This document shows, in pieces, positions 12,722 through 44,985 of a stretch of DNA of 64,000 nucleotides. The DNA comes from Candidatus Woesearchaeota archaeon (GTDB taxonomy: Archaea; Nanobdellota; Nanobdellia; Woesearchaeales; GW2011-AR9): positions 132,583 through 196,582 of the forward strand of contig JACOZP010000008.1 of NCBI GenBank assembly GCA_016181265.1, written 5' to 3'. How positions within the stretch are numbered: the stretch's first letter is position 1; every line of letters starts with the position of its first letter. The notes under the pieces were generated by a model. It saw only the letters and a program-made list of their open reading frames with translations, was not told where the DNA came from and made no database searches. A program made the position numbers and the translations under genes.

Positions 12722-12724
12722 AAA

Positions 12725-13258: not shown

Positions 13259-13272
13259 AGAAAAGAGGAGAC

Positions 13273-13626: not shown

Positions 13627-13703
13627 TGAAGTTAGAAGAAATCACTGTTATTTAAATGTTATGAGCTACTAAGAGTAGCGGTACCATGGTTTTCTGGTTA
13701 TCC

Positions 13704-14207
13704 CTACATAAAGCCGAGTCGTCTTCCGCGGGTTGAGTTCGCTTTCTTGATTCCTTCTATAGTCTCTTCAAGAGAATAGCACCATGGCTCGAGTACTACA
13801 CATACACGAGGGAGATCAAAGAGAACAGGTTCATAAAGATGAAGATAAGGAGGAGTATTGGTCGCTTCGGTGTGATAGAAGAAAGCGACGCCTTGTCCAT
13901 GTTGGGGAAGATGATTCCTCTCCTGAAGAAGAATGGTGCGATTATACTTTGTTTGGAGAGCCCTCATCTCCCAGGGTGATGCTTTTTTTATAGTAGAGAA
14001 TGAATGTTTACCGGGTTGGAGAGAGCCGTTAAGATAGTAGTCAAAAACGTTCCCGTGAATACCATCGATGATTATCTTGAATAGTTTTTCACCTTGCACC
14101 CCCGGCTGGAGATGAAATTCGAGACGGACACCATCTTCGCAGTAGAAGGGGGATTTCACCCGGTACAATAGGTCTCGAGGAGCGAGGGGTTCTTTTTCTT
14201 TGGTCAT
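13704..14207 (-). CDS. Hypothetical protein
   Basis: ORF 13704-14279. The start at MTKEKEP (14207) abuts the ribL stop. No recognisable motifs. Confidence 0.35.
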   Translation of the reverse strand: MTKEKEPLAPRDLLYRVKSPFYCEDGVRLEFHLQPGVQGEKLFKIIIDGIHGNVFDYYLNGSLQPGKHSFSTIKKASPWEMRALQTKYNRTILLQERNHLPQHGQGVAFFYHTEATNTPPYLHLYEPVLFDLPRVCVVLEPWCYSLEETIEGIKKANSTRGRRLGFM

Positions 14208-14208
14208 A

Positions 14209-14625
14209 TTATTTTCTTTCTTCGATGAGCTTGCGAAGGAAACTACTTTTTTGAGACTCTGATTTAAATGGTTTTGCACGGACTATCGTAGGATAGAGGT
14301 TACGTGATTGAAGTTCATCGGTTAATTTTTCTTCTGCTATCTGATGGTCGTAGCCGAGACAAATGACATCTGGCCTTTTTTCACAGATAATTTTAAAGTG
14401 ATCATTCTGATCGCCAAGAATTGCCTCATCGACAAGGCGTAAGGATTGGACTAGTTTTAACCGTTGCTGTTCGTTAAAGATGATCGGTTTTTTTTGCTTT
14501 TCTTTTGTCTTATCGCGAGCAATGACAACAAGCAAGTAATCACCATATTCTTTAGCTTGTTCAAAGTAGTTGAGATGACCAAGATGCAAGAGATCAAATG
14601 TCCCGAAGCACATGACGGTTTTCAT
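14209..14625 (-). CDS. ribL: FAD synthetase (FMN adenylyltransferase), archaeal RibL type
   Basis: MKTVMCFGTFDLLHLGHLNYF (HxGH nucleotidyltransferase motif). VIARDKTKEKQKKPIIFNEQQRLKLVQSLRLVDEAILG resembles archaeal RibL. The longer ORF start (14694) would overlap the upstream gene. Confidence 0.7.
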   Translation of the reverse strand: MKTVMCFGTFDLLHLGHLNYFEQAKEYGDYLLVVIARDKTKEKQKKPIIFNEQQRLKLVQSLRLVDEAILGDQNDHFKIICEKRPDVICLGYDHQIAEEKLTDELQSRNLYPTIVRAKPFKSESQKSSFLRKLIEERK

Positions 14626-14626
14626 T

Positions 14627-16747
14627 TTAGATTTTTTTGGGAATAAGTGTGGCTTGGTGGATGAGGAGGGTGGCAGTATTCTTTTTTTCTTCAATGATCT
14701 CGGCGCTTTGGATCTTTATCTTTTTCTGAAAGAGAGGGCAATCTAATACCACCGATTCAAATTCACCACCCTCACCAGCGATGTTGAGGTATGTTTTCTC
14801 ACGAATCTTTTTTAAGCGTTCAATATCAATCTTAGTGATTGGTCGGTTTAGCCAAGACTTATCTAAGCCCTCCGCAGCAACGGCGGTAAAGATGATTTCA
14901 AATCCAGCATGAAACAGTTCTTCCATATGAGCATCTGGCTGCTTATGCCATAGAGGAGAAAATATCTTAAGACCGAGATTATCACAAATCTTTTCGATGC
15001 GATCACGTTGGTACGTCGAGAATAAAGCTCCACTGACAATCCCATCAATGTGATATTGTTCTTTAGCTTGCCGGAGAGCTTTCTCTAGATCGAGAAGCTC
15101 GATTTCTTTTTCTCCTGTTGTTTCTTGAATGATAAGCGGCAGTTCCATTGCCTGTGCTTGTAATTCCACTATCTCTACACCTGCACTTTGGAACATATAG
15201 GAATGAGAGTTCTGGGATTTTAATGTGATAAGACAAGTTAAAGCATAGTTTTGTTGTTTCATGATGTAGGCTGCAGCAGTGGAATCTTTGCCTGAAGAAA
15301 ACAGGACGCCAAGTTTAAGGTTTGGTCTAGGGTAGAATTGTTGGAGGTATGTTGACTTACTGGTGTAGCCTTGTTTTTTGGAAAGACGTTCGATAGCGTT
15401 ATCGATGCGTGAGCCGTACTGGGCGGCAACTTTTCTACGAAAAGCAAATTCTTCTGGAATGCCTTCTTTTTGTGCGATCGTACGGAGAATAATTTTAGTG
15501 TGTAAATCATCGATCTTATATTTAGGTGGTATCTTAAGTGAATATGTAATCAATTCTTTATCAAGATAAGGTAAACGAAGTTCAAGATTATTGTCCATAG
15601 TGAGGACATCGTCTCGATAGAGATCTCGTTCGTAGAGCTTGATCAACCCAGAAACACATTCTTGATTGATATTAGCGGATTGCTTATGCCGTTCATAGCC
15701 AGCAAAGATCTCTTCGCTGCCGAGACCGGAGAAGATTACTTTACAGCCGTCTTCTTTAGCCATCTCACAAGCAAGATAAAAAGTAAGAGCAACGCCAACT
15801 TTAGTGACATTGGAATCTTCGATAAGAGGGACTATTTTTTGAAGGAGGGGGGGGATTTCATCTATCTTCACTTTTTTGATCTTTAAGTTTAAGTGTAGTT
15901 GTTGCGCGATCTCCTGTGCGGCGAGCAGATCAGAGGGGGGAACGGTGTCGTTATCGAGGACAGCAGTATAGCACGTAAACTCATAGTCGCGATCTTTAAG
16001 GAATTTAGCCAGATACGTGGAGTCGATTCCTCCAGAGAAGAGAACGCCAAATTTCTGTTGAGGGATGCGTTTCTCTATAGCTTGATGGAGTAATTCTGTG
16101 GTTCTCTCCCTAATCCGTTGGATATCTTCTTGATGTTCAGGAAGGTAGTGGAAGAAATTGCGTCGTTGGATAGAATAAGTATTTGTTGAAATAGTGTACC
16201 GAAGTATAGACCGCGGGTTGAGTTCTTGGATATCAGTGAAACCTATTTTTTCTAATACTTTTTTTTCAGAGGCAAAGGCAAAAGAACCGTTGGTATGGGT
16301 AAACCACAATGGTTTCTCTCCAAGTATGTCACGAATAAGGGTGACGGTATCTTTTTTCCAGTAAGCGGCGGCGTAGACGCCGTCGAGTTCGTCTACTTTT
16401 TCAGTGCCGAACTTTTCAAAGAGTTGAAGAAGGAGATCGGCATCGTTTCGGGCTTTGAGACTAAATTTTTTTGCTAACTCTTTCCAATTATAGATCTCAC
16501 AATTAGTTGAAAGAACACCTTCTCGTCGTAGCGGTTGGGACACGTGATCGACAACGGCATGGAGGGTATGGCCAAGAAGGTGATTACCTTTGATCAAAGG
16601 AAGGTCCCGGAGGGTTGGATTGGTGACGATTTCTGTTTCGGAAGCGACACCACAGCCATCTTTTCCACGGTTATGTAACGAGGCTAACGCTGACCTAATC
16701 TTGTCCTTTGCGTCCGGATGGTTAAAGATGCCAATGATGCCACACAT
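14627..16747 (-). CDS. Three-domain fusion: class-II glutamine amidotransferase + asparagine synthetase (PP-loop SGGIDS) + C-terminal MJ0570/Dph6-like diphthine-ammonia ligase domain (PP-loop SGKDS, EGGEFES)
   Basis: 706 aa continuous ORF. MCGIIGIF N-terminal nucleophile. FSGGIDSTYLAKFL AsnB PP-loop. C-terminal about 230 aa: LFSSGKDSTAAAYIMK...DGIVSGALFSTYQRDRIE...IAGEGGEFESVVLDCPLF aligns closely to MJ0570-type diphthine-ammonia ligase. Confidence 0.75.
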   Translation of the reverse strand: MCGIIGIFNHPDAKDKIRSALASLHNRGKDGCGVASETEIVTNPTLRDLPLIKGNHLLGHTLHAVVDHVSQPLRREGVLSTNCEIYNWKELAKKFSLKARNDADLLLQLFEKFGTEKVDELDGVYAAAYWKKDTVTLIRDILGEKPLWFTHTNGSFAFASEKKVLEKIGFTDIQELNPRSILRYTISTNTYSIQRRNFFHYLPEHQEDIQRIRERTTELLHQAIEKRIPQQKFGVLFSGGIDSTYLAKFLKDRDYEFTCYTAVLDNDTVPPSDLLAAQEIAQQLHLNLKIKKVKIDEIPPLLQKIVPLIEDSNVTKVGVALTFYLACEMAKEDGCKVIFSGLGSEEIFAGYERHKQSANINQECVSGLIKLYERDLYRDDVLTMDNNLELRLPYLDKELITYSLKIPPKYKIDDLHTKIILRTIAQKEGIPEEFAFRRKVAAQYGSRIDNAIERLSKKQGYTSKSTYLQQFYPRPNLKLGVLFSSGKDSTAAAYIMKQQNYALTCLITLKSQNSHSYMFQSAGVEIVELQAQAMELPLIIQETTGEKEIELLDLEKALRQAKEQYHIDGIVSGALFSTYQRDRIEKICDNLGLKIFSPLWHKQPDAHMEELFHAGFEIIFTAVAAEGLDKSWLNRPITKIDIERLKKIREKTYLNIAGEGGEFESVVLDCPLFQKKIKIQSAEIIEEKKNTATLLIHQATLIPKKI

Positions 16748-16802
16748 ATATCCTCTGTTCTACGGAATGTTTATAAATATTTCACTTCTTTTTAGTGGTG
16801 CT

Positions 16803-17321
16803 ATGGATGATGAAGGGAAATTGATCGAGTTAGATGCGTTTAGACAGCGTCAACAAAGAGCTCTCAAAAGAAACGGGCTAAAAGAGAAAGTGTTGAAAAG
16901 AGGAGCAGTGCTTGTGCTTAGCGGGATAAGTGCTGGCTTTCTTTTTTTAGCGGGATATGGGACCTATAAACTCTTCTCCTCGGAACCAGTTCCTCGCGCT
17001 GTTCATCATGATGCTAGTACGGATTATCAACCGGCGCAAATTGAGAAAGTTTTTCTTCCGCCTAACGTAGAATTAATCCACTATACTCCAGAGCAAACTC
17101 AACGAGAAGGAGTGGTCATTAATTATTCAGGATATCGTATCTCTTACATAGACACGGACGGGGATCATACGGTAGATCAAATTATAATTGATGATACTAC
17201 AAGTTCAGGATTTTCTCCGTTAGAAAAGAAAGTAGAGATCATGCCGATTGGTTCTGTTCATTTTAAGTATGGGACGGAATTGTTGAGAGGAGAACGAGAG
17301 AGATATTTTAGAGAACATTAA
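16803..17321 (+). CDS. Hypothetical single-pass membrane protein
   Basis: ORF 16590-17321. The upstream part overlaps the asnB-like gene on the other strand, so the start is placed at MDDEGK (16803). One TM (AVLVLSGISAGFLFLAGYG). Confidence 0.35.
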   Translation: MDDEGKLIELDAFRQRQQRALKRNGLKEKVLKRGAVLVLSGISAGFLFLAGYGTYKLFSSEPVPRAVHHDASTDYQPAQIEKVFLPPNVELIHYTPEQTQREGVVINYSGYRISYIDTDGDHTVDQIIIDDTTSSGFSPLEKKVEIMPIGSVHFKYGTELLRGERERYFREH

Positions 17322-17343
17322 AGGTCACAATCAAAAATAAGAT

Positions 17344-23236: not shown

Positions 23237-23281
23237 GAGAGTGGTACCTCTTGTATTTTAAACCGGGAAGGGAAAAAGAGT

Positions 23282-23416
23282 TTAACGAGCTTTGACGTGG
23301 TTAACAGTACGACGGTCTTTGTACAGAATCTTACCACCACAGTAAGGGCAACGGACTTTCGTCCGAGTATATTCATCTTCTACTTTTTTTCCGCAATCAA
23401 AACAGACGTAATACAT
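23282..23416 (-). CDS. rpoP: DNA-directed RNA polymerase subunit P (Rpo12/RpoP)
   Basis: Manual translation gives MYYVCFDCGKKVEDEYTRTKVRCPYCGGKILYKDRRTVNHVKAR (44 aa). It has a C-x2-C...C-x2-C zinc ribbon typical of RpoP. The ORF is below the 60 aa cut-off of the ORF track. Confidence 0.75.
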   Translation of the reverse strand: MYYVCFDCGKKVEDEYTRTKVRCPYCGGKILYKDRRTVNHVKAR

Positions 23417-23426
23417 TGTGCACCTT

Positions 23427-23624
23427 TTAGATTGTATATGCCTTACCGGCAAACTTGACGCTACATTTACGACACTGCCAGATGCCCATCGCGAGACGCT
23501 TTACAGCGGTTTTACTGCAAGAAGGACATTTATGAGCAGAACGTTGAATCGCTTCAATCTGACCAAACTTTTTCTTGGGTTTTGTCCCGTAACGGGTGCC
23601 GAAACGTTTTGTTGAAGTTGTCAT
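23427..23624 (-). CDS. rpl37ae: Ribosomal protein L37Ae (eL43)
   Basis: 65 aa. KRFGTRYGTKPKKK...CPSCSK...GIWQCRKCSVKFAGKAYT matches the zinc-ribbon L37Ae consensus. Confidence 0.85.
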   Translation of the reverse strand: MTTSTKRFGTRYGTKPKKKFGQIEAIQRSAHKCPSCSKTAVKRLAMGIWQCRKCSVKFAGKAYTI

Positions 23625-23647
23625 GATAATTCCCTCATAAGATAGAG

Positions 23648-23812
23648 TGGGGCTGCCCGGAATTTCGTGAAATTATTCATTTCCGTTCGAACCGGGGTTC
23701 AATGGTTTTTTTGTTGTTCCGGTCATCGCCGAAGGCTCACCCAAACCATTAGTGATAGTTGCTCGAAAATGACTATTTGAGAGTCATCTTCACCAGGCTA
23801 CACTACAGCCCC
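23648..23812 (-). tRNA. Probable intron-containing tRNA (possibly Leu-CAA; 165 nt precursor)
   Basis: The minus strand reads GGGGCTG-TA-GTGTAGCCTGGTGAAGA...CCCGG-TTCGAAC-[24 nt]-CCGGG-CAGCCCC-A. It has a perfect 7 bp acceptor stem and an archaeal AGCCTGGT D-loop. A TGACT-CTCAAAT-AGTCA hairpin could be the anticodon arm (anticodon CAA). The T-loop/T-stem is interrupted by about 24 nt, and about 70 extra nt lie between the anticodon and T arms. Confidence 0.45.
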
Positions 23813-23878
23813 ACAGTTTATTTATAAACTTTTGTGTTAAAAAGGGCACTATATTAAAAATCTTTCTTCTGTGGGGAG

Positions 23879-32848: not shown

Positions 32849-35800
32849 CTAACCCATAAACGCTCCTAATCCGACTTGCTTCTCTTTATCTTTGCCAAAG
32901 ATATGTTCTACATCACTCTTAATGATGTTAAGAGTCTGTTTTAAGTACGGGGAGAAGTCATATTTCTCTGCTAACATCAGTGATGGTCCAAGGTATTTAA
33001 TGACGGAACCTTCAGAAATTGTAAAGATTAGTCTCCCACCGCAAGCAGTGCACTTTCCAGCGAGTGGCGGGCGACGATATTTCTCGTTGCATTTCACGCA
33101 GCGAAATTGTTGCATGGAAAATTTCTTGAGATTCCCTTTCAAATCTTTGATGAAATGTTTCTGAATAACCAATTTAGCAACATCGTCCATATTAACAGCA
33201 CGAACTTTTTGAGCAATTTCCATCTGTCCCATCAGTTTTTCTTCCATGGAGGGAATGGTCTTGTAGGCAGAACATTGCACACCTTTATTGAAATTAGTTG
33301 TTGGATGAGTAAATCCGTATTGTTCGTACTGCAGTGGTGTTCCGAGACGATCACTGATCTGTTCTACTTTCTTTTGGTCTGGACCGGATTTCACTTCCCA
33401 AGGGGCTTTCATCTCTAACGCAGCTTCATAGAGTTCCAAAGGATAACGCCAGACAATATCAACACCATGAACTTGGTCATCAACTTCAGAAGGATTAAGG
33501 AACGCAGTCAAGACTAAGGGTGAGTCCATCGTTTTAGCACCACGTCTTTCAGGAAGATATTGTCGAGAGAAATTAAGAAGAGCATCCATCAGAAGCATAA
33601 CAGCAGCTTCATCACCATCACAATCACGCCTCATCCCGGCATGATACATCGGATGGGTAATCAATCCCTGCGTTTCGGAGAAGCCGATAATCCTACCGAC
33701 TAGTCCGGCAGAGATATGGGGAGCGATGCCAACTACAAGATGACCGACAAGGTCTTGTTCTGTATTAATGTTATAAAATGGTTCTAAATGATAAAATTGA
33801 ATCAAGAGATCATCGATGAATTTTGCGACTCGTGATAATACTTTTGGTGCAGATTCATCAAGGGAGTCAAAGCCGGGGAGGATAACATCTTGGGGTTTTA
33901 TTTCTACGACTTGTTGATCAGACTGAAGATCAGCACCATATACATCGTGAGTGTATCCCAATTCCCGTAATCTTTGGACAGAGGTCTTTATCTCTTTAGG
34001 CTTGAAATGGGTGATAGGTAATTCTGTGCAGTCATAGCGAGTGGTTCCGTCTTTATTAACATAGACATCATGTTTGGCGCGGAGTAATCCTTTGGTCAAG
34101 TGTTCTACAATATGGTGTTTGTTGGAGGTGCCACGAATGCCTTTAATGAGATCGGGAAAGATTTTTTCATTAAGACGTCCTTTGGCCTTGGTGAAGTAAT
34201 AATTAATATCAAGATCTTGGTGTTTATAACGAGAAGCAGGGCCGTGACGGCATTGATCTTCTGACAGATCACCACATTGTCGACAGAAATAATGTTGGAT
34301 GCAAGCCGTACCACAGTCCTCACAAGAAGGATAAATCATTTTTTTCTGGCAGGGTTCGCAGAAGAAACAGGGGAAAGCGCTATTAACTTTGCCGTTGACT
34401 AAAGCAGCTTGGAAACTGCGCAAACGATCGCCTTCTTCTCCCACAGGAAACATGACCTGTGGGGATCCGGTAAGGTGGCGCATCTTGGCTTTTTCTGGAC
34501 GGCCCATTCTTGCACCAATAAATGTTCCAGCTTTATCCCGCTGAGTTATCTTATTGAAAGAGTTGAGGAACTCTAACGCATTTCTAAATGAAGAGTGAGA
34601 AGGGAGAGATCTCTGCTCTAATTCCTGCGGGGAAGAAAAGTTAAAGATCAAACCAAGATATTGGGCTTCTTTTTGTTCGATGACAAGATTATCTTTATTG
34701 ATAATCTTGTGAGGAAGACCAATATTATCAAGAATCTTTTTAGGATAGGAAAGTTCTTTGTTGAAAGGGAGAATAATTTTAGTGATGCCGAGTTGGTCAC
34801 ATTTTACTTTTCCCTCTTTTAGCCATTGAAAGAGAAAGGAGACATCTTCTGCAGATGCAAGCTTCCAATAGGCGGTGAACTCAGGATGTAGAGGAACGGC
34901 ATAATGAGTAGAAATAGAAATTGCTTCTTCAAAAGTAGGGTATAAAGTAAGAGGGGATTGAAGAAGTTCATTGATCCTTTCGGGAGAGAGATTCAATTTT
35001 TGCGCCGTGTCGTTGAGCCATGAACCAGTCTGGTCTTTGCCCATTGCTTTTTCAAATTCTAGCATCCACCACTCGGGACAATAACCTGCGGGAACTAATT
35101 TTTGTCCGTTCTCAGAAAAATCACCATAATTAAAGAGGATGTCACCAAGGAAGAGAATTTCTTCAACAGATGGAATGAAAGGTTTAGCTTCCTCCTCATT
35201 TTGCAACTTCATAACAGAACCATCGGTGAGACGAACGACGGGCCCTTCTAATGAGTCACAAATAGCAACGGTTGCTGCTTTTCCTGGACGTTCAACCTTG
35301 AGCTGGGTGCCAATAGCAATGAATTTGTCAAGGACAAGGAGGGTTACGGGGTGAAGTGCCGCCGTAGAAAAACCAGTTGTTCTTGCTCTCCCGTAGCGAA
35401 GACGGAAACCGCCTGCTCCTAAAGGGTGCGTTAGAATCGGACGGCCGGCAACAAGATCCATAATAAAAGTGTTATTTGCTTTCACTACTTTTTCTGTTGA
35501 TGTTTTTTCTTCATTGTTTTTAGCAGGGCCATGAGAAGCATGAATTTCTTCTTTCAGTTTGATGAAGTCAGCAAGCCAGCTCCAATCTAGACCCATCTCT
35601 TTTCCCCATTTAGAGAGACGTTTCCATAGTTTTGGCGCTTTTTGGCAGAGGCCTTCAGCAAGAACCAACGCAACACCACCACGAATGAGATTAGACTCTA
35701 TCCGAGGAAGATCTTTATAGTTGGAAACTTCGAACTGTTCAGTGGGGTCGCCGTCCACTTCAACAGGAAGATGGGAGATCATAAATTTCAATTCTTGATC

Positions 35801-36445
35801 AGAGGGACGGTATTGAAGGTTAGTAACACGTTCGTGGTAGTCTCCAACTTCGATGGCATAACGATTGACTTCTTTTTCGTCAGGATCATAGGGTGCATAA
35901 CCCATTCTCACTCTCACATAATCAGAAAGGATGACGGAAGTAGATGCAGCAGTTCCACCGGCCCCGCGGATGGGGCCGGCATATTGGAGAGCAAAATATT
36001 CTTTACCATCTCTACGCTTTTTTATTTTAAGTCCGACGAAGCCTTCTAATGGAGCTGAAACGATCCCTAACGTGAGATACGCAAAGCCGACACGAATGCC
36101 TACTTCCATCGCCGTTTGCTTATCCTCAAATTTACAAAATTGTTCTTTGGCGACCTCTTCGGCAATGGTAAAACCAACACGCCAATCAAGAAGACCGTAT
36201 TGTTTTTCAAGTTCAGTTATACGTTGGGTAACAGTAGTATTAGTTATTTGCGGTGCGACCACAGAGATGAGACCGACAACTCGTTCAGCCATGTTTTTGG
36301 CTAATGGAATAGCAACTGTCCTTTCAGGGTCTAGGCCTTTCGCTCGCGCTTCTTCAGCAACAGCATAGGCTTTTGTTACACTTTCTGTAATCTGCTGGAA
36401 GTATTGTTGTATCTCCGGTGATGCGACGATGGCCACGTTAACCAA
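32849..36445 (-). CDS. polC: DNA polymerase II (PolD) large subunit DP2
   Basis: 1198 aa with characteristic DP2 regions and zinc-binding C-terminal cysteine clusters. No intein detected. Confidence 0.93.
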   Translation of the reverse strand: MVNVAIVASPEIQQYFQQITESVTKAYAVAEEARAKGLDPERTVAIPLAKNMAERVVGLISVVAPQITNTTVTQRITELEKQYGLLDWRVGFTIAEEVAKEQFCKFEDKQTAMEVGIRVGFAYLTLGIVSAPLEGFVGLKIKKRRDGKEYFALQYAGPIRGAGGTAASTSVILSDYVRVRMGYAPYDPDEKEVNRYAIEVGDYHERVTNLQYRPSDQELKFMISHLPVEVDGDPTEQFEVSNYKDLPRIESNLIRGGVALVLAEGLCQKAPKLWKRLSKWGKEMGLDWSWLADFIKLKEEIHASHGPAKNNEEKTSTEKVVKANNTFIMDLVAGRPILTHPLGAGGFRLRYGRARTTGFSTAALHPVTLLVLDKFIAIGTQLKVERPGKAATVAICDSLEGPVVRLTDGSVMKLQNEEEAKPFIPSVEEILFLGDILFNYGDFSENGQKLVPAGYCPEWWMLEFEKAMGKDQTGSWLNDTAQKLNLSPERINELLQSPLTLYPTFEEAISISTHYAVPLHPEFTAYWKLASAEDVSFLFQWLKEGKVKCDQLGITKIILPFNKELSYPKKILDNIGLPHKIINKDNLVIEQKEAQYLGLIFNFSSPQELEQRSLPSHSSFRNALEFLNSFNKITQRDKAGTFIGARMGRPEKAKMRHLTGSPQVMFPVGEEGDRLRSFQAALVNGKVNSAFPCFFCEPCQKKMIYPSCEDCGTACIQHYFCRQCGDLSEDQCRHGPASRYKHQDLDINYYFTKAKGRLNEKIFPDLIKGIRGTSNKHHIVEHLTKGLLRAKHDVYVNKDGTTRYDCTELPITHFKPKEIKTSVQRLRELGYTHDVYGADLQSDQQVVEIKPQDVILPGFDSLDESAPKVLSRVAKFIDDLLIQFYHLEPFYNINTEQDLVGHLVVGIAPHISAGLVGRIIGFSETQGLITHPMYHAGMRRDCDGDEAAVMLLMDALLNFSRQYLPERRGAKTMDSPLVLTAFLNPSEVDDQVHGVDIVWRYPLELYEAALEMKAPWEVKSGPDQKKVEQISDRLGTPLQYEQYGFTHPTTNFNKGVQCSAYKTIPSMEEKLMGQMEIAQKVRAVNMDDVAKLVIQKHFIKDLKGNLKKFSMQQFRCVKCNEKYRRPPLAGKCTACGGRLIFTISEGSVIKYLGPSLMLAEKYDFSPYLKQTLNIIKSDVEHIFGKDKEKQVGLGAFMG

Positions 36446-38147
36446 ACCTCAAAACTTTTATCTGTCTCGTCTTAAGATTTACAATAGGGACGCGTGCTGG
36501 TTCGGGTTCATGTCCTAATTTTTCTTGAAATGAAGTCTTGCCTTGCCAGCAGCTGCCACTGATCATCGTGACGCCGCGATAATTTGCCTGTTTGGAGTAA
36601 TGAATATGTCCAGTGATCAGGAAATCAGGGATTTTTTTGATCAGGAGGGGGTCCTCGGCATGAGAAGGATAATAAGGAGTAGATTTGAATGAGGGGGCTA
36701 AGTGGCGGCGTTTCAGAAGAAACTTCATGATTAAATCAGAACGGTGATACCCGCCTTGTGAACGAATGGATTCAACGTTAGCAACGTAATAATCAAAACT
36801 ATAACCGTGATACATCATCACATCAAAACCAGGAAAATCGTCTCTTTTTCCGATGTTGACAAGAGCAGGATTGGTGACCAACGTGACGTTAGGAAGATTA
36901 AAAAGACCAGGAGCGAACTCTTGGTAAAACACAGGTTGCGGCTCGGCAAGATGGACCACATCATGATTACCGGGACAGATGATAACTTGTTTATCGGATG
37001 GTATCTGTTTTAATAATTCGGTAAATGCCGCGTATTGACCGGAGATGTCGTCAATCTCGAGCTCTTCTTGTTGAGAAGGATAAATGCCTACTCCATCGAC
37101 AAGATCACCGGCGATGAAGATATATTTGACATTATGAGCAATGTTGCGCTGTTCATCATTGCCCGTCTCCCCTTTTAACCAATAGAGAAACTTATTAAAT
37201 TCTTCTTTGAGAAAGAGTTTTGATCCTACGTGGATGTCAGAAAGAAAAATAACATATTCTTCTACAGGACCTTTTTTAAGTTCATGATCTTGAGGAATAT
37301 CAGGCCAGACAAAAGAATCGGCAAAGATTACTTTATCATAATAAACACCGGCGACACCTATTACTTCATCAACGACCAAGTCCTTGGCAGCAAGAAAGGT
37401 TTCGTTTTTGTTCTTGGAAACAATAATCTTAATTTCTCCTGTAGGGTCTTCTACAGTTATCACAAGATTGCCGGTTTTGGTTTCACCAACCTCTTTGATA
37501 ATGCCAATAAGAGCGATTTTTTCTTTTTCGTTTTTTTGAAGAATACGTTTAATGGTAAGGGTTCCTGTTAATTCTTTGCGATGACGAAGGATTCCTTCTA
37601 GAAAACGGTAACGAGTTAAGAAAAAGTTAGTGAAATCCTCCACCAGATATTTTCTGGGAATATTTTGATAGGAAATGATGATCGAAACAGCAGATAGAGA
37701 AGGAGAAAAAAGAAATTGGTCTTCTTTAGAAACATTTTGAAATAGAGAGGATTGATTTTCGGGAAGATATTGTCCGTCGTGAGACGTGAAAGAGAAGTCT
37801 TCTTCTGGAGATAAAGAAACTTCTGTCGAGATGATCTTTTGATTAGAGGGGGGAGTGCTTAATTGAGAAGAAGAAAATTCTTGAAGTTGAGATTGATAAA
37901 GTTCATCATCACGATCTTTTTCCGCGTCGACGCGGCTTTTATCAATTTCATACCAGTCAACGAGGGAGGATTTTCCTAAAATGTTGGTGTAATCATCATT
38001 GAGAACTAGAAGATCTTCTTCCAGTTCTAATTTGGTGATGATAGTATCATCTAAAGAAGCTTGATGTCTAGTAAGAAGTTCTTCATTGATGAGTATACCC
38101 TTTTCAAACATTTCTCCAATAAATTCCTGAGTTGTTTTTTTGACCAT
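36438..38147 (-). CDS. polB: DNA polymerase II (PolD) small subunit DP1 (calcineurin-like 3'-5' exonuclease)
   Basis: 569 aa. N-terminal OB/linker. Mre11-like phosphoesterase motifs (VIFLSDIHVG, IFIAGDLVD, GNHD, GHIH). Overlaps DP2 by 8 nt (operon). Confidence 0.9.
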   Translation of the reverse strand: MVKKTTQEFIGEMFEKGILINEELLTRHQASLDDTIITKLELEEDLLVLNDDYTNILGKSSLVDWYEIDKSRVDAEKDRDDELYQSQLQEFSSSQLSTPPSNQKIISTEVSLSPEEDFSFTSHDGQYLPENQSSLFQNVSKEDQFLFSPSLSAVSIIISYQNIPRKYLVEDFTNFFLTRYRFLEGILRHRKELTGTLTIKRILQKNEKEKIALIGIIKEVGETKTGNLVITVEDPTGEIKIIVSKNKNETFLAAKDLVVDEVIGVAGVYYDKVIFADSFVWPDIPQDHELKKGPVEEYVIFLSDIHVGSKLFLKEEFNKFLYWLKGETGNDEQRNIAHNVKYIFIAGDLVDGVGIYPSQQEELEIDDISGQYAAFTELLKQIPSDKQVIICPGNHDVVHLAEPQPVFYQEFAPGLFNLPNVTLVTNPALVNIGKRDDFPGFDVMMYHGYSFDYYVANVESIRSQGGYHRSDLIMKFLLKRRHLAPSFKSTPYYPSHAEDPLLIKKIPDFLITGHIHYSKQANYRGVTMISGSCWQGKTSFQEKLGHEPEPARVPIVNLKTRQIKVLRFG

Positions 38148-38190
38148 GGTGATTTTGTGAGTGGGTTAGACAAAATGGTTTAATGGATGG

Positions 38191-39393
38191 TTAAGAGAGG
38201 TGCAATGACTTCTCTAGGATTTCTTTGAGTTTGGTAACGACTGATTCTTCCAAAGAGATGGATATTTGACGAGTTCGCCCGTACCGCCCTTTTGAAATGA
38301 TATTGGCATTGATAATCCCTAACATATCCAATTCAGCCAGGATATCCGAGACCCGACGTTGGGTAAGAACATTATAATTACTCTTTTTACACAGAGTACT
38401 ATATAACTCATAGATCTCCCCTGTAAATATTTGTTTTTGTGGCGATGAGACGAGGAGGAGAGTGTATAACACCAGCTGAAATTGTTTGGGTTGATTTGTA
38501 GCTGCATTAATAATCTTATCCGATTCTACACGATGTTCAGCTTCATCAAGATGGGTGATAGAAATGGTCAGAGACCCACTCCGTTCTGCAATTTCCCCAG
38601 CAACTCTCAAAAGATCTATCGCCCGACGGGCATCTCCATGCTCACGAGCGGCAAATGCAGCACACTTTTCGATAAGTCCAGCTTCAACAGTACCCTCACA
38701 AAAAGCTTTTGCTGCTCTTTTGCGAAGGATATCTTGAATTTGGATAGCATTATAAGGTGGAAAAATAATTTCTTCTTCAGAAAGACTACTCTTGACACGA
38801 GGGTCAAGATTTTCTGCAAAGATGAGATTATTGGAGATGCCAATAAGACAAATTTGAGAATGATGTAGTTCAGAATTGATTCTTGTTAAGTTATAAAGCA
38901 TCTCGTCACCGATTTTTTTGGTTAGTTGATCAACTTCATCGAGGACTAAGAGAATTAACTGTTTTTTACGTTCGACAAGTTTGTAAAAGATGTTATATAC
39001 TTCATCAGTAGGAAGACCGGTGGGAGGGATTTCTTGGCCAAGGAATTTGATCAATTGAGCGATAAGTCGATATTCAGTATCAGCCACGCGTTTTAATTTA
39101 CAGTTTAAATAGATAGTTTGAATGGGGATGTTATTTTTCTCAGCAATTTGACGCATGGAAAGAAGTATATAACGCACAGAAAGAGTCTTACCAGTGCCTG
39201 TCTTTCCATACACAAAAAGATTAGATGTACGTTCTAAACGTAATGCAGGAGCTAAAATGTTAGCTATTTCTTGGATTTGTTCTTCTCGGTAAGGTATATC
39301 CTCTGGATAATGAGAAGATAATAGTACCGACTTATCAACAAATAAAGAGTCTTTTTTTAGGAAGTTTTCAAAATAATTACCTATTTTAAGCAT
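38191..39393 (-). CDS. cdc6: Orc1/Cdc6 replication initiator
   Basis: 400 aa. Walker A GKTGTGKT. Walker B LVLDEVD. C-terminal winged helix. Immediately adjacent to a long AT-rich non-coding region. Confidence 0.9.
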   Translation of the reverse strand: MLKIGNYFENFLKKDSLFVDKSVLLSSHYPEDIPYREEQIQEIANILAPALRLERTSNLFVYGKTGTGKTLSVRYILLSMRQIAEKNNIPIQTIYLNCKLKRVADTEYRLIAQLIKFLGQEIPPTGLPTDEVYNIFYKLVERKKQLILLVLDEVDQLTKKIGDEMLYNLTRINSELHHSQICLIGISNNLIFAENLDPRVKSSLSEEEIIFPPYNAIQIQDILRKRAAKAFCEGTVEAGLIEKCAAFAAREHGDARRAIDLLRVAGEIAERSGSLTISITHLDEAEHRVESDKIINAATNQPKQFQLVLYTLLLVSSPQKQIFTGEIYELYSTLCKKSNYNVLTQRRVSDILAELDMLGIINANIISKGRYGRTRQISISLEESVVTKLKEILEKSLHLS

Positions 39394-39609
39394 AGAGACC
39401 CCCTTATTTCCTGTGGAAAATGATGATTCTTGGATAGGATATGATCAAAAAAGATGTGGTTTAAGATGGATAGGTTGATCAGTTGGAAGCTTTCTTATAA
39501 AGACTTTTAATTTTGAACAGGTCTATCTTAGAATATATACCAAATAGATAAAGATATTCTTTTACGGCACTTAAAAATGGTTAAATGTAATTAAAGAAAA
39601 TATTGAATA

Positions 39610-39624
39610 TTCCACTACAGTGGA
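39610..39624. repeat. ORB-like dyad TTCCACTACAGTGGA
   Basis: Inverted repeat TCCAC/GTGGA inside the candidate origin. Confidence 0.4.
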
Positions 39625-40025
39625 TAGTAGAGATATTACCACTTTTGATTTTAGGAAATTAATGTGGTTTTTATTATTTAACATTTATGATTTGTTATTT
39701 GTTATATTATTATTTACTATATAGAAAATAATAATAATAATAATAAAAATAAAAAGTTATGATAAAGAATAAATAATGATAAGTAAAAATATGATACTTA
39801 TTTGATAGTAAGATTGGTGAAGATAAATTCATGAATTAGATAAAAAATGTTATTATGCTCTTTGGTTTCTGAATGCATCAAACCATTGTTCAATGAGTGT
39901 TATTCCCTTTTTTAGGATATTTTCCTAATGTTGATTGCATTTAACAGTTTAGCCTATCATTCTTCTTGAACATTCCTCTCAAAATTTTTTATTAAATAAA
40001 TGTATGAAAAACCAATAGAAGACCA

Positions 40026-40040
40026 TTTTTCCATTTCCAT
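40026..40040. repeat. TTTCCAT tandem (TTTTTCCATTTCCAT)
   Basis: Shares the TTTCCAT core with the ORB-like elements. Confidence 0.4.
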
Positions 40041-40200
40041 AAGAAATATCATTAACTAGTTAAATGGTACTAATTTGTTGATTGAATTTTAGTCCCATTC
40101 TGCGCAGAGAACTGATCGTTGTCAGTTTTCTTGCGCTTTCAGACGTTTCCTGTATCCATAATTAAAGAAGATTTTACCTAGTTCATTAAATTTTTTCTTG

Positions 40201-40225
40201 TTTTCCATTAGAAACGATGGGGTGG
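40201..40225. repeat. ORB-like element TTTTCCATTAGAAACGATGGGGTGG
   Basis: Matches the archaeal origin recognition box pattern including the 3' G-string. Confidence 0.55.
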
Positions 40226-40312
40226 CGGTGGTTGATCAGGGATTTCCAATTATTTTAGGTTGACTTATTGTTAAATGCAATTATTTTGGCTGGTGCTTTC
40301 ATTTAATTAGTC

Positions 40313-40335
40313 TTTTCCATTAATTTCTAAGAAAT
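40313..40335. repeat. Direct repeat of TTTTCCATTA (TTTTCCATTAATTTCTAAGAAAT)
   Basis: 10/10 identity with 40201-40210. Partial dyad TTTCCATTAATTTCTAAGAAA. Confidence 0.45.
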
Positions 40336-40367
40336 GTTTATATAGTTTATATTGTGTTTTTCTACTT

Positions 40368-41234
40368 ATGGTCTTAGAATTGTTATTCAATCCATTTTCC
40401 CTGAAGAAAAAACCCTGGCAGATGTTTATCGTGGGCTTTTTTAATTCTATTATTGCTCTTATTCTTTCTTATATAGTATTTAAAGATGCAGCGGGGTTAT
40501 TGTCTGTTTTTTTAGTAGTGATGTCTACTCTTCCTTTATTTTATGTGACGATCAAACGTGAAGAAGAGCTTGACTTTAAGTATCCAGAATCCCGTATTCT
40601 AAAAGAACATGGCAAAGTACTTTTTTTCTTTATGTTCCTGTTTTTTGGGATTTTGTCGGCAATGGTATTAGCCTATGTTTTTCTTCCACAAGCAATGGTT
40701 GATTCTGTCTTTAACTTACAACAATCAGCAATCATGAATGTAAATAATGCAATCCAAACTGGACCAAGCAGTGCAGTTGTGACGGGAAATATCACTTCAA
40801 TTAGTCTCTTTATGAGAATATTATTCAATAATTTTAAAGTTCTTTTCTTCTGTTTGGTCTTCTCTTTTTTATATGGTGCCGGTGCGATCTTTATCTTAAC
40901 TTGGAATGCTTCTGTTATTGCTTCTGCAATGGGAAATTTAATCAAGACAGAAGTCGCACATGCGATCAATTCTATAGGTTTGCCCTCGGTTGCTACTTAC
41001 TTCAGCGCGGCTGCTTTTAGTGTCTTTCGATATATGACTCATGGTATTTTTGAAATTGCTGCGTATTTTATTGCTGGCTTAGCAGGGGGAATTATTTCTA
41101 TAGCGTTTATCAAACAAAACTTAAAAGAATCAAGAATTTATATGGATGTATTAGATTTAGTCTTAATCAGTATTGGCTTACTTGTTGTTGGGGGGATTAT
41201 TGAAGTATATATTACCCCCGTTTTCTTTGGCTAA
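40368..41234 (+). CDS. SpoIIM/DUF95-like polytopic membrane protein
   Basis: 288 aa, about 6 TM. HGIFEIAAYFIAGLAGG motif typical of the stage-II-sporulation-M-like family. Confidence 0.45.
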   Translation: MVLELLFNPFSLKKKPWQMFIVGFFNSIIALILSYIVFKDAAGLLSVFLVVMSTLPLFYVTIKREEELDFKYPESRILKEHGKVLFFFMFLFFGILSAMVLAYVFLPQAMVDSVFNLQQSAIMNVNNAIQTGPSSAVVTGNITSISLFMRILFNNFKVLFFCLVFSFLYGAGAIFILTWNASVIASAMGNLIKTEVAHAINSIGLPSVATYFSAAAFSVFRYMTHGIFEIAAYFIAGLAGGIISIAFIKQNLKESRIYMDVLDLVLISIGLLVVGGIIEVYITPVFFG

Positions 41235-41249
41235 TTTTTATAATTTTTA

Positions 41250-42056
41250 TTATAATACTTTTACTCTTCCCGGTTGATTTTGAAAGATATCGCCGCTTTC
41301 TAACATTCGTTGAATAATCTGTTCTGTATTATTTAAAGGGGATTTCTCAATCACTTCTTCGATGAAAACTCCTTGGCCCCGATCTAACTCTTTAATTATC
41401 TTAACTAATTTCTCGTATGATAATTCTTCTTTTACTGCTGTAATTAGTCCCAAATCAGATGTTTCTGGTGGTTTTGGTTCTGTTTTAGTTTTTTGTGGTG
41501 ATTGTTCTTTTTCTCTCTCATCTTCTTTACTTTCTTCTCTTATTTTTTTATTCTTTTTCTCTTTTGGTTTCTCTTGTTCAACAGGATGACTTACTTCTTT
41601 TTGGGTATATTTCTCCCATCCTATCTTTTTCAATTCTTCCTTTCTTATCTTTAGCCAAAGGGAATCAATTTTTTTGATAATTTCTGGCGAGATATATTTC
41701 TCTTCATTATATAATCTTATTCTCCCTATCATTTGGATAACATCTCCTACTTCTCCAGTTCGGATAGCTTTACTTTCTTCAAATAGGCGGGCGACTATTT
41801 TATCCGTTCCATCATCTAAAAGAAGATTGGTGATCATTCCAATTTTCTCTTTATTGATGATCACTGCAATTACATTTACCCTATATATCCTCTCTTCTTC
41901 TCCTATTTTTAGGTAATTTGGTTCTTGTTCTTTTTCTATGATATATTCTCCTTGATGGATAAGTCGGAGAGGGATTTTACATGCAACCTGTCTTTTATTC
42001 TTGTTTTCTAGTTTTGATGTTTCTTGTAGTGCCATGGTCCTGTGTTTTAACTTCAT
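41250..42056 (-). CDS. RPA32-like single-stranded DNA-binding protein (OB fold + K/E-rich linker + C-terminal winged helix)
   Basis: 268 aa. OB-fold-like YRVNVIAVIINKEKIGMITNLLLDDGTDKIVARLF...GDVIQMIGRIRLY. C-terminal LITAVKEELSYEKLVKIIKELDRGQGVFIEEVI...MLESGDIFQNQPGRVKVL resembles the RPA32 wH domain. Located next to mcm. Confidence 0.5.
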   Translation of the reverse strand: MKLKHRTMALQETSKLENKNKRQVACKIPLRLIHQGEYIIEKEQEPNYLKIGEEERIYRVNVIAVIINKEKIGMITNLLLDDGTDKIVARLFEESKAIRTGEVGDVIQMIGRIRLYNEEKYISPEIIKKIDSLWLKIRKEELKKIGWEKYTQKEVSHPVEQEKPKEKKNKKIREESKEDEREKEQSPQKTKTEPKPPETSDLGLITAVKEELSYEKLVKIIKELDRGQGVFIEEVIEKSPLNNTEQIIQRMLESGDIFQNQPGRVKVL

Positions 42057-42067
42057 TTAGTGGTGAT

Positions 42068-44089
42068 TTACAATCTCTGTACAAATCCTTTCCGCGGCTC
42101 AAAAATATCTCCTGAACGGCGGAGCTTATCAATAGTATCATTGATTGTTTCTGGGCTGATGCTTTTCTCTTTGGCGGCTTCAATGACCATCTCTAAAGGA
42201 ATCATCTTTGAATTTGTCTGTTCTTCTAGAGCGTGGATTATCTCTTTAACTATACTAATTGTGCCTCGCTGTGATGCAGTGATACTACTGCTGATACGAT
42301 CAATGTCGATCTTACCAGTTTTCTCATCTTTCGCTATTTGATTAAGACAGTAATCTACTAGTTCTATCGCTTTCTGCGCATCTGATTTTTCAACAGTTTT
42401 AGAAAGGCGTACTTTGGCCATCGCTTCTGATAGGCGTACGAGTGCTTCTAATTGACGGGCAGTGATGGGGATGCTCTTTATCCCTCCTTCATCTCCCACG
42501 CCAGAATTACGCATACTTATATAATATGATTTTATTTCTTCTATCGCTTCATCAGACATTTTCGGATTCATCTTTGCTCTAATATGGGCAAAAAATTTTT
42601 TTAGTAAATCAGTTGATATTTCCGAAATAGCTTTTTCCGGATCTTTGTGCAATCCAAGAATAAATTCTGCCGTTTTCTCGTCTTTTTCACGGCTAGGCAG
42701 ATCTTTGACAGGGAAGATGAGGTCAAAGCGGTTAATTAATGTTGGAGGGAGGTCAATTTGTGAAGCGATAAGATCGTAAGGATCGAAACGGCCAAATTTG
42801 GGGTTAGCAGCAGCGAGAACAGTCGTTTCACATCGTAACGTAGCTTGGATATTTGCTTTAGCAATGCTGATCGTCTGCTGTTCTAATGCTTCGTGGAGAG
42901 CGGAGGTATCTTCTTTACCCATCTTATCCATTTCATCAATAATAGCAAACCCTTGGTTAGCAAGGACGAGTGTCCCTGCTTCTAAGCTCCAGCCTCCTAA
43001 GAATTCATCTTTAACGACACTTGCCGTTAGGCCTGCTCCTGTTGCTCCTTTTCCGCTCGTAAACCGCGCTTTTGGTGCAATTTTAGAAAGACGTTTAAGA
43101 AGTTGTGATTTCCCTGATCCCGGATCACCAATGAGAAGCATATGCATATCTCCTCTTGTTACAACACCATCTGGTCGGACTTTGCGACAACCACCGGCAA
43201 GCTGGAGGATGAGCGCTTCTTTGATCTTATCGTGGCCATAGATTGAAGGAGCAAGACTTTTAGTCAATCTCTGAAGAACATTGGGATCTCTTCCGATCTC
43301 TTTGATTTCTTCTAATTCTTGTTCAGTAATGTTTAGTTCGTGTTGATCTTTTTCTGCTGGCTGAACAAAATTTGCTTCCACAATCAATTCAAATTTTGTA
43401 GATTGCCCTCCACTGCGAAGAGTGACTGGCACTTCAGTTACCCATCCACTGATAAGGACACGGGAGCCAGGACTAGTTCGTCTTTCGGACATGGGCGAAA
43501 CTAAATCGTCTTTAAGGAAAACGTTGATCCTCTTAGGTTGGGCGCCGTCTAATTCTTCTGCTGCTTCTTCTAAGACCAATCCTTGACCATCTACTAGTTC
43601 TTTAGACACTTCTTTGAATTTTCCTTTTCGACCACAGCCGCAACGGCTGGGCTCTTTGTATTTGTTGTCTAGTTGGAGAACGGTGAGGATATTACCACAG
43701 GAAGGACATTCAAATTTTGATGCAGCAACGTGAGGACGGACATCTGATTTCTGACGAACAATTCCTTCTACCCAAATAAATTTCTTGAGGTGACGGCTTC
43801 TAATCTCGTTGATCTGGATCTTTTGAGAATCGGGAAGGTTCTTGAAACGCAAGGAAAATTTTGTTATCTTTTTGGGCAAGTCAAATTCTTTGATGGCAAG
43901 TTCTCCTGCTTTGAGAATGTTTTCTGGATCTTCGAGCATCTCTTCTGATAATTCAGTATTAAATCTAACTAATTCAGCAAAATCAAGGACTAAAAAAATG
44001 TGGCCTTTACGAACTGCTTCTAAGAGCTGTGGATAATAATTTTGTTCAATGAACTCCCGAAAAGTCTTAATTTGTTCGTCTACATCCAT
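42068..44089 (-). CDS. mcm: MCM replicative helicase
   Basis: 673 aa. N-terminal zinc finger CPSCGN...CGCGRKGKF. Walker A GDPGSGKSQLL. Walker B IDEMDKM. Arginine finger region SALHEALEQQTISIAKA. C-terminal wH. No intein. Confidence 0.93.
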   Translation of the reverse strand: MDVDEQIKTFREFIEQNYYPQLLEAVRKGHIFLVLDFAELVRFNTELSEEMLEDPENILKAGELAIKEFDLPKKITKFSLRFKNLPDSQKIQINEIRSRHLKKFIWVEGIVRQKSDVRPHVAASKFECPSCGNILTVLQLDNKYKEPSRCGCGRKGKFKEVSKELVDGQGLVLEEAAEELDGAQPKRINVFLKDDLVSPMSERRTSPGSRVLISGWVTEVPVTLRSGGQSTKFELIVEANFVQPAEKDQHELNITEQELEEIKEIGRDPNVLQRLTKSLAPSIYGHDKIKEALILQLAGGCRKVRPDGVVTRGDMHMLLIGDPGSGKSQLLKRLSKIAPKARFTSGKGATGAGLTASVVKDEFLGGWSLEAGTLVLANQGFAIIDEMDKMGKEDTSALHEALEQQTISIAKANIQATLRCETTVLAAANPKFGRFDPYDLIASQIDLPPTLINRFDLIFPVKDLPSREKDEKTAEFILGLHKDPEKAISEISTDLLKKFFAHIRAKMNPKMSDEAIEEIKSYYISMRNSGVGDEGGIKSIPITARQLEALVRLSEAMAKVRLSKTVEKSDAQKAIELVDYCLNQIAKDEKTGKIDIDRISSSITASQRGTISIVKEIIHALEEQTNSKMIPLEMVIEAAKEKSISPETINDTIDKLRRSGDIFEPRKGFVQRL

Positions 44090-44255: not shown

Positions 44256-44816
44256 CTACTTAGCCAGAACTTTCTTTAGGTTCTCAATAAGCTTGTCGGT
44301 AGCATCATTTACTTGTTCTTCTGTCTTTGTTCCGGTACAGACAATCTTTCCATTACTAAACAAGAGAAATGTTGCATTTGTACCCTTCAGTTTATGGACT
44401 AGCCCTGGAAATTGTTCGGGCTCATATTCTGTGTTTGGTAATTTAATTCCTAAGACATTTAAATTAAGGTCCATACCAATACTTCCGGAAGCAACAATAT
44501 TCTGAACTGTAATAACCGGCTTGATTGTTACATTAATATTCAATTTTTTTAAGCTCTTGATGATACTTTGGATACTTTGATCAACCTCTTCCATTGTCCG
44601 TGCACCAGTACATACTACTTTTCCACTAGAGAAGATTAATGCTGAAGTCTTCGGCTCTTTGATGCGTAATACCAATCCAGGAAATTGTTCTGGATTATAT
44701 TCTGTGTTTGGGAGCGTGGCTGCCATCTTTTCCAAAGGAATATCTTTCTCTAGACCGGTAGATACCACAATGTTTACAATTCGTATTTTTTTCTTGGCTG
44801 AGCCAGTTGCTGTCAT
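44256..44816 (-). CDS. tbp: TATA-box binding protein
   Basis: 186 aa with two direct repeats: IVNIVVSTGLEKDIPLEKMA...PEQFPGLVLRI and VQNIVASGSIGMDLNLNVLG...PEQFPGLVHKL. Confidence 0.9.
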   Translation of the reverse strand: MTATGSAKKKIRIVNIVVSTGLEKDIPLEKMAATLPNTEYNPEQFPGLVLRIKEPKTSALIFSSGKVVCTGARTMEEVDQSIQSIIKSLKKLNINVTIKPVITVQNIVASGSIGMDLNLNVLGIKLPNTEYEPEQFPGLVHKLKGTNATFLLFSNGKIVCTGTKTEEQVNDATDKLIENLKKVLAK

Positions 44817-44985
44817 CGTTTAAACCCCCTATTTATACTTCTAAATGGCTTAATGTTAAGCTAAGTATTTAAATATTCCCTTTATAAACTGATTGCTCTC
44901 TTGTTTATATATATGCTCCATATATTAGGCAGTATTCTTCTATTTTTAGAGAATATTTAAAAATTAACTCTCTCTTGATTAAAAT

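Follow-up and report, generated by a model that had tools for sequence, protein, structure and literature searches.

In archaea the established plan of a chromosomal replication origin (oriC) is a pair of inverted origin recognition boxes (ORBs) flanking an AT-rich unwinding element beside the initiator gene (PMC4010727, PMC12141716), and the published archaeal ORB core is 'TCCA-GAAAC' with a GGGGT G-string (PMC4164010). In Pyrococcus furiosus, ORB1-3 and the mini-ORB TTCCAGTGGAAAT are bound by Cdc6 (PMC1904270), and in Sulfolobus the unwinding element of oriC1 carries a non-ORB motif, ucm, which is essential and is bound by UBP (PMC12141716). The taxonomic ORB clusters listed in PMC4164010 include no DPANN ORB profile, and a preprint reporting ORC1/Cdc6 as a single-copy core gene of the phylum to which the archaeon studied here belongs (10.64898/2026.05.13.725050) rotates genomes to ORC1 without ORB or skew analysis. 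Our own literature search found no ORB or oriC description for DPANN archaea. We analysed a 64 kb (64,000 nt) window, the whole stretch of DNA that was examined, out of a 201,692-bp contig of a Woesearchaeota (DPANN) archaeon, and we predict that its intergenic gap at 39394-40367 is very likely the oriC of this organism, of the classical Orc1-1/ORB type, because it combines an ORB pair, an AT-rich core, adjacency to orc1, conservation in relatives and a switch of AT skew at the gap. An initial annotation had proposed a candidate origin here, between orc1/cdc6 and the mcm side, and the sequence-level features of an origin were indeed found. To our knowledge, replication in this phylum has never been studied experimentally.

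The gap lies directly upstream of orc1/cdc6 (38191-39393, minus strand, 400 aa) and towards MCM (42068-44089, minus strand), as first annotated, and is thus both intergenic and adjacent to the initiator gene. It had been described as the only long (about 970 bp) non-coding stretch; at 974 bp it is the longest stretch free of open reading frames (ORFs) in the window, but 'only' was slightly overstated, as the next two measure 642 bp (23237-23878) and 596 bp (16748-17343). These two shorter gaps gave no Rfam or tRNA match and held no ORB. The encoded Orc1 matches the Pfam families Cdc6_C (4e-26), Cdc6_lid (9e-23) and AAA_22 as well as NCBIfam TIGR02928 (395 bits), and is 100% identical to a Candidatus Woesearchaeota protein held at NCBI. 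Its nearest solved structures are Orc1-1 of S. solfataricus (2qby_A, 5e-101) and ORC1 of A. pernix (2v1u_A, 2e-92), with a far weaker match to Orc1-3, and on similarity, rather than on a phylogeny, the initiator can be assigned to the ORB-binding Orc1-1 group.

Two full ORBs were found in the gap. The proximal one, ORB1 (TTTTCCACAGGAAATAAGGGGGT, 39398-39420, minus strand), stops 5 nt short of the orc1 ATG and scores 31.6 bits on our ORB matrix; the distal one, ORB2 (TTTTCCATTAGAAACGATGGGGTGGCGG, 40201-40228, plus strand), scores 31.8 bits, and no other site in the window reaches 8 bits. They are inverted, about 780-800 nt apart, with their G-strings pointing outward from the unwinding element, and they enclose the AT-rich core. 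Searching both strands of the 64 kb for the full-ORB pattern TCCA-N3-GAAA-N3-5-GGGG returned two sites, both in the gap, versus 0.01 expected, so that the gap holds at least two ORBs, with dyad and G-string, beyond chance. The initial annotation had already recognised the ORB with its G-string at 40201, and the sequences it quoted were all recovered where it had placed them; it missed ORB1, which a repeat finder returned as the inverted-repeat partner (I9) of 40201-40223.

The further ORB copies for which it had advised a motif search thus include ORB1 and also a mini-ORB without G-string, TTTCCATAAGAAAT (40034-40047, plus strand), which scores 21.6 of a possible 21.9 bits on a mini-ORB matrix and has an additional TTTCCA just before it at 40028. 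By this matrix the gap has three sites of at least 9 bits compared to 0.13 in shuffles, and none of 500 shuffles reached three. The position of the mini-ORB is not conserved in the close relatives described below. The TTTCCAT-core elements were likewise correctly reported as repeated, since TTTCCA occurs six times in the gap against 1.3 expected, a count reached by only 1 of 1000 dinucleotide shuffles. Two copies of TTTTCCATTA had been noted as a direct repeat (40201 and 40313), and as an exact repeat this is beyond chance (0 of 1000 dinucleotide shuffles), but the second copy (40313-40322, plus strand) is a left half-site only, stays under 9 bits on the mini-ORB matrix and has no conserved counterpart in the three close relatives L081, L084 and L086, so it finds no support as an ORB. 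A TCCAC...GTGGA dyad (39610-39624, 5-nt arms and a 4-nt spacer), also listed at first, was rejected as an ORB, scoring below 9 bits on the same matrix and not being conserved in close relatives.

Outside the origin the only strong mini-ORB-like site of the window, TTTCCACAAGAAAT (8117-8130, 20.8 bits), falls inside a tRNA-like sequence at 8031-8196 (plus strand) with the D-arm GCCGGAGTGGTCAAACGG, which ARAGORN, when introns are allowed, reads as tRNA-Phe(GAA) with a 70-nt intron and which overlaps the start of the ORF at 8133-9584. Default ARAGORN and Rfam reported no tRNA anywhere in the 64 kb, including 8031-8196.

Between the two ORBs lies the candidate duplex unwinding element (39656-39855), with 13.5% GC over 200 nt and including the (AAT)n tract at 39727-39755 which had been suggested for this role. 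The GC minimum of the window falls here (39674-39773, 9% GC, the next-lowest 100-nt stretch having 17%), as do its least stable 100 nt (39702-39801, free energy -93.4 kcal/mol, about 5 standard deviations from the window average of -130.2 +/- 7.0 kcal/mol), so that the strong AT-richness reported initially is borne out and the inverted ORBs surround both the GC and the stability minimum of the window. The element is T-rich 5' of its centre and A-rich 3' of it, and a TAATAATA-type tract is present in 22 of 22 members of the clade. A strong DNA hairpin was considered as a further property of the unwinding element and rejected, as it exceeds shuffles only modestly (z-score -2.25, 5/200).

For comparison, 80 loci of relatives, metagenome-assembled genomes of Woesearchaeota/Nanoarchaeota, were fetched from GTDB species representatives; their encoded Orc1 is 49-77% identical to that of the window, and 59 of them have enough upstream sequence to serve as the basis of the ORB-pair counts. 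A position-blind ORB regular expression matched almost only within 1.3 kb upstream of orc1, the proximal site always lying on the orc1 strand and the distal site always on the opposite one. Counted at 18 bits, the ORB matrix gave 119 hits in this upstream zone (83 kb in total) versus 11 in the remaining 781 kb of the relatives' loci, about 100-fold denser. At least one ORB was present in 52 of the 59 loci and an inverted pair (distal-minus, proximal-plus) in 42, while the opposite arrangement occurred in none, so position and orientation upstream of orc1 are both conserved; a lack of such conservation had been named at the outset as something that would speak against an origin. Spacing within the pairs ranges from 128 to 803 nt (median 419), and in 41 of the 42 pair-bearing relatives the GC minimum of the whole locus (about 13 kb) lies between the ORBs. 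The consensus across relatives is TTTCCAyanGAAATnAAGGGGTgnGnG. Positions left free by the regular expression are themselves informative, with T at -1 and -2, T or C at 11, A at 13-14, T at 19 and G at 22 and 24, and the ORB is therefore a real motif.

The closest relatives were aligned with the window (alignment A1: the window with L081, L084 and L086, Orc1 86-88% identical). Their spacers have otherwise diverged (53% column identity), but an invariant ORB1 block, TTTCCAnnnGAAATrAgGGGGTCTCTATG, runs through all four sequences. What all three relatives keep is ORB1 at the ATG, a block resembling a TATA box some 100 nt upstream, a palindrome termed PAL (see below) together with a tract of AT trinucleotides and, at the distal end, an inverted ORB or a site similar to one; ORB2 aligns with inverted ORBs in L081 and L084, and with an ORB-like site having a variant GGG string in L086. 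In one of the three, a thermosome gene stands beyond the spacer where the window has the SpoIIM-like gene, and because its upstream neighbour differs, the spacer travels with orc1.

Strand asymmetry was analysed at four-fold degenerate sites with gene strand separated from position. Top-strand AT skew is +0.30 to the left of the gap (positive in 35 of 37 genes) and -0.25 to the right (negative in 13 of 15), with similar values for genes of either strand. The best two-segment split of AT skew is the gap itself (39393/40368), and 0 of 5000 gene-order permutations reached this statistic. The same direction was found in 17 of 19 close-clade relatives (binomial p = 7e-4), and the raw-window purine-pyrimidine (RY) disparity has its maximum at 39847. 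On the presumed leading strand of the window T exceeds A, which is the sign that origins usually show. When gene strand and replication side were fitted as two terms, the GC term came out 'inverted' in the window and was absent from the pooled relatives. We also observed that four-fold GC skew on the plus strand is positive on both sides of the origin for genes of either strand, a strand-wide G excess that does not track the AT-skew flip.

Besides the ORBs, the gap carries two further motifs. PAL, TTTACTATATAGAAAA (39713-39728), is a 16-bp palindrome at the centre of the unwinding element (inverted repeat I2), itself the centre of a longer AT palindrome at 39692-39749, and its family consensus is TTTTCwATATwGAAAA. 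The PAL pattern has a single match in the window, and in relatives it has 37 matches within 1.3 kb upstream of orc1 compared to 2 in the other 781 kb, one of these belonging to a second ORB pair. Of the 42 loci with an inverted ORB pair, 30 have PAL between the two boxes, among them loci of relatives with only 57-63% Orc1 identity, and the sequence is T-rich 5' and A-rich 3' of PAL, on either strand, at 33 of 38 PAL sites. That PAL is a promoter with a TATA box and a transcription factor B recognition element (BRE) is improbable from a reading of the sequence only, which shows no purine-rich BRE upstream on either strand.

The second motif, M2 (rATTrCATTTAAC), was found by counting enriched words and by alignment. 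All four CATTTAAC sites of the window are inside the gap: M2a (ATTACATTTAAC, 39580-39591, minus strand) and M2b (ATTGCATTTAAC, 39934-39945, plus strand) each read outward from the unwinding element, M2c (GTACCATTTAAC, 40059-40066, minus strand) is a weaker copy, and M2d (ATTGCATTTAAC, 40270-40281, minus strand) sits in a 16-nt block conserved in L081 and L084 (AAATTGCATTTAACAA). M2b forms a perfect 13-nt inverted repeat (I24) with 40269-40281. Within the window's clade two inverted M2 copies bracket the AT tract, each of them reading outward; M2 is kept at one position or more in the three close relatives, and in relatives conservation extends to flanking positions that the search did not set (A 34/37, T 31/37, T 36/37, R 36/37). 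The M2 12-mer was found 9 times outside origins in the relatives, where about 0.6 were expected, and the protein that binds it may have targets beyond the origin. Further minus-strand copies of the M2 core CATTTAAC, located +1013 to +1333 from the orc1 start, coincide with or closely follow the 3' end of orc1 in L010, L013, L014, L015 and L017.

A short non-ORB motif within the unwinding element, between inverted ORBs and conserved across origins, is what PAL represents, and here its likeness to ucm is one of position only. We tentatively suggest, with a confidence that falls a little short of even, that PAL and the inverted M2 pair constitute an extra origin layer, being sites for an accessory factor (UBP/ucm-like) or, in the case of PAL, for a second mode of Orc1 binding; the PAL half-sites TTTC-N6-GAAA are reminiscent of the TTTC-N5-GAAA dyad of the ORB.

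Both ends of the gap also look like promoters. On the orc1 side a probable TATA box with BRE, AGTCTTTATAAG (39494-39505, minus strand), lies about 100 nt upstream of the ATG, in a region where the block AGTCTTTATAA is conserved in all four sequences of alignment A1. This is the probable orc1 promoter, which would place ORB1 inside the 5' untranslated region. On the other side the SpoIIM-like gene has a probable TATA box, GAAATGTTTATATAGT (40331-40346, plus strand), which the window shares with L081 and L084 where alignment A1 begins. The distance of this box from the ATG, about 24 nt, suggests that the SpoIIM-like mRNA would be leaderless. Because ORB1 is found between the probable TATA box and the start codon of orc1, with its G-string (GGGGT) at Shine-Dalgarno distance from the ATG, origin-bound Orc1 probably also represses its own gene via ORB1, a proposal drawn from position only.

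Full ORBs were also seen away from the main spacer in some relatives. L060 (-2325, -2232) and L064 (-2603) have extra copies 2.2-2.6 kb upstream of orc1, and in six relatives a single full ORB of 27-33 bits stands by itself at 5.2-5.7 kb upstream of orc1 (L008:722, L010:575, L012:338, L014:713, L015:823 and L066:647), located about 20 nt upstream of a strong TATA box (ATTTATAAAGGsAATATTTAAATA) that belongs to the gene occupying the TBP position. The gene there is TBP both in the window and in L081 and L084, which are syntenic with it; of this promoter and the lone ORB, the window has only the promoter (44862-44886, minus strand). Such an ORB could reflect regulation of that gene by Orc1, or could be an outlying origin element. 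In L022 (63% Orc1 identity) a compact 140-bp module, ORB(-)/T-rich/PAL/A-rich/ORB(+), is found at 12998-13140, downstream of the orc1-dp1-dp2 operon. The gap upstream of orc1 in L022 measures only 128 nt, and a single ORB is present at -1184. In the L022 lineage the origin may have shifted across the orc1-polD operon. As the module is away from the orc1 promoter, it supports PAL as an element of the origin and not of a promoter.

By analogy with Sulfolobus, Aeropyrum and Pyrococcus, Orc1-ATP monomers would bind each ORB with fixed polarity (PMC4010727, PMC12141716, PMC1904270), with the winged helix placed on the TTTCCA-N3-GAAA dyad and the G-string contacted by the AAA+ initiator-specific motif. 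The DNA would be distorted by this binding, and MCM would be recruited onto the tract between the ORBs. Melting would then begin in the 9%-GC core around the central PAL and forks would leave bidirectionally, with PAL and the M2 pair as possible additional cis-elements for a binding protein, in a position like that of ucm in Sulfolobus oriC1.

Strand asymmetry aside, in which AT skew turns at the gap and GC skew does not, every sequence-level feature of an archaeal Orc1/ORB origin that we tested for is present at this predicted origin, and the plan is ordinary. A number of points do count against it. The cumulative GC skew, which had been put forward as a check, rises through the locus and has no minimum there in the 64-kb window, and at four-fold sites GC skew goes from +0.39 on the left to +0.10 on the right with no change of sign; classical GC skew was therefore rejected as an origin marker here, and it is the AT skew at four-fold sites that gives the clear signal, AT skew at neutral sites and RY disparity turning at the gap instead. 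With all relatives pooled, the replication-side term comes out weak within +/-6 kb (AT3 -0.028 +/- 0.013, GC3 +0.021 +/- 0.015). The full ORBs stand about 800 bp apart, far above the 130-bp ORB3-DUE-ORB2 unit of Sulfolobus oriC1 (DUE, duplex unwinding element). The ORB matrix was trained on the same relatives that were later scored with it; positional ORB enrichment was already visible with the position-blind regular expression, before the matrix. Finally, the G-string of ORB1 could owe part of its conservation to a role as a ribosome-binding site. In other relatives the proximal ORB is found 31-90 nt or more upstream of the ATG, to about 280 nt, and because it sits further from the ATG there, conservation of ORB1 is not merely that of a ribosome-binding site.

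Could the gap be a divergent promoter and operator region only, its ORBs serving as Orc1 operators while replication starts elsewhere? The location of ORB1 between the probable TATA box and the orc1 ATG, the promoter-like TATA boxes at both gap ends and the subclade with a lone ORB just upstream of the TBP promoter would all suit such a model, and Orc1 paralogues can regulate transcription, as Orc1-2 does (PMC9738581). ORC1/Cdc6 is, however, reported to be a single-copy core gene of this phylum (preprint 10.64898/2026.05.13.725050), so that no dedicated regulator paralogue is expected, and an operator needs neither an inverted second ORB 0.13-0.8 kb away, nor a palindromic tract of 9% GC, nor a change in the sign of AT skew at the gap. 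The ORB-PAL-ORB module of L022, beyond the orc1-polD operon and away from the orc1 promoter, is also hard to reconcile with it, and we consider this explanation very unlikely. That the gap is instead an oriC by descent which is now little used or dispensable, recombination-dependent initiation or another origin dominating, has a precedent in Thermococcus kodakarensis, which keeps an oriC that it can do without and grows without Cdc6 and oriC (PMC5663688). The lack of a GC-skew flip at the gap would be in keeping with this, and the 64 kb examined leave room for other origins elsewhere on the chromosome. The clean flip of AT skew at the gap, with which 17 of 19 clade relatives agree, requires long-term strand-specific replication from here, and the ORBs, PAL and M2 are under strong purifying conservation in spacers that have otherwise diverged; a disused origin is thus very unlikely as well.

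Both skews change value at the gap and the raw cumulative GC skew has a local plateau or maximum near 41 kb, which might point to some other compositional boundary, namely a terminus, the breakpoint of an inversion or island, or the origin of an integrated element. We regard this as extremely improbable. A terminus of the usual polarity fits only one of four skew signs compared to three of four for an origin, an inversion breakpoint would reverse both GC and AT skew, and ORBs with an adjacent orc1 are features of origins and not of termini. Core chromosomal genes (PolD, Orc1, MCM, TBP) also lie on both sides, syntenic with relatives. An origin of the classical Orc1-1/ORB type therefore remains the reading we prefer for the gap.

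The surrounding genes complete the picture. Downstream of orc1 and on the same minus strand are the PolD subunit genes DP1 (36438-38147) and DP2 (32849-36445, 1198 aa), forming a same-strand cluster headed by orc1, and the order oriC-cdc6-dp1-dp2 on one strand is kept in L081, L084 and L086. On the other side of the gap follow the genes of a SpoIIM-like membrane protein (40368-41234, plus strand) and an OB-fold protein (41250-42056, minus strand), then MCM, 1.7 kb beyond the gap on the side away from orc1 and two genes on, and TBP (44256-44816, minus strand). In L086 the large PolD subunit (11344-16308, 1654 aa) contains an intein, with Intein_splicing and LAGLIDADG_3 matches, which the DP2 of the window does not have. 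Non-coding RNA or small-ORF content of the gap was considered and rejected: Rfam found no non-coding RNA either in 38000-42000 (permissive scan) or in the whole window (gathering threshold), ARAGORN with default settings found no tRNA, and the small ORFs in the gap are all of 40 aa or fewer, of low complexity and unaligned in relatives.

The locus itself is what a specialist would expect beside orc1. As far as the literature searched shows, this is the first sequence-level definition of a Woesearchaeota origin, and the extra conserved motifs PAL and M2 are new; only these two might prove to make it a new variant of origin. A usable matrix (TTTCCAyanGAAATnAAGGGGT), together with the inverted pair and the AT core, would serve to anchor and orient Woesearchaeota assemblies, and an origin defined by sequence would allow peak-to-trough growth estimates from metagenomes. 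In this lineage the informative asymmetry is AT skew or RY disparity at neutral sites and not GC skew. PAL and M2 are concrete candidates for the sites of an origin accessory factor in organisms which cannot be cultured alone, and such a factor, or a second Orc1 mode, would if true be a previously undescribed layer of origin specification.

Compared to the origins recognised by Ori-Finder 2 and DoriC (PMC4164010), the locus is alike in its intergenic site by orc1/cdc6, its ORB core and G-string and its disparity extreme (the RY maximum at 39847 and the AT turn), and differs in that GC disparity has no extreme here. With the oriC of Pyrococcus and other Thermococcales (PMC1904270) it shares the oriC-cdc6-dp1-dp2 order and an intergenic region of several hundred bp with two inverted ORBs, 13-bp mini-ORBs and AT-rich stretches, and the mini-ORB core is identical, TTCCA-N3-GAAAT here versus the TTCCAGTGGAAAT of P. 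furiosus. The spacer between GAAAT and the G-string, however, measures 3 nt here compared to 8 nt in the ORB1 oligonucleotide of P. furiosus (PMC1904270), and Pyrococcus has many mini-ORBs where the window has one strong copy. Thermococcales have a second cluster of ORBs or mini-ORBs inside dp1; this was sought in the window and is absent, the best dp1 hit (37637-37650) reaching 9.3 bits and not being a full ORB. The oriC1 of Sulfolobus/Saccharolobus (PMC12141716, PMC3607249) is alike in having the initiator gene next to the origin, its Orc1-1 being the best match to the Orc1 of the window, in its inverted full ORBs around an AT-rich unwinding element, and in a conserved non-ORB motif in the middle of that element, ucm there and PAL here. 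The window differs in that its ORBs are about 800 bp apart, in its extra M2 pair, in the palindromic nature of PAL (ucm has 11 bp, and the likeness drawn here is one of position), and in having one initiator and presumably one origin rather than three. The 140-bp ORB-PAL-ORB unit of L022 is comparable in turn to the 130-bp ORB3-DUE-ORB2 unit of Sulfolobus oriC1.

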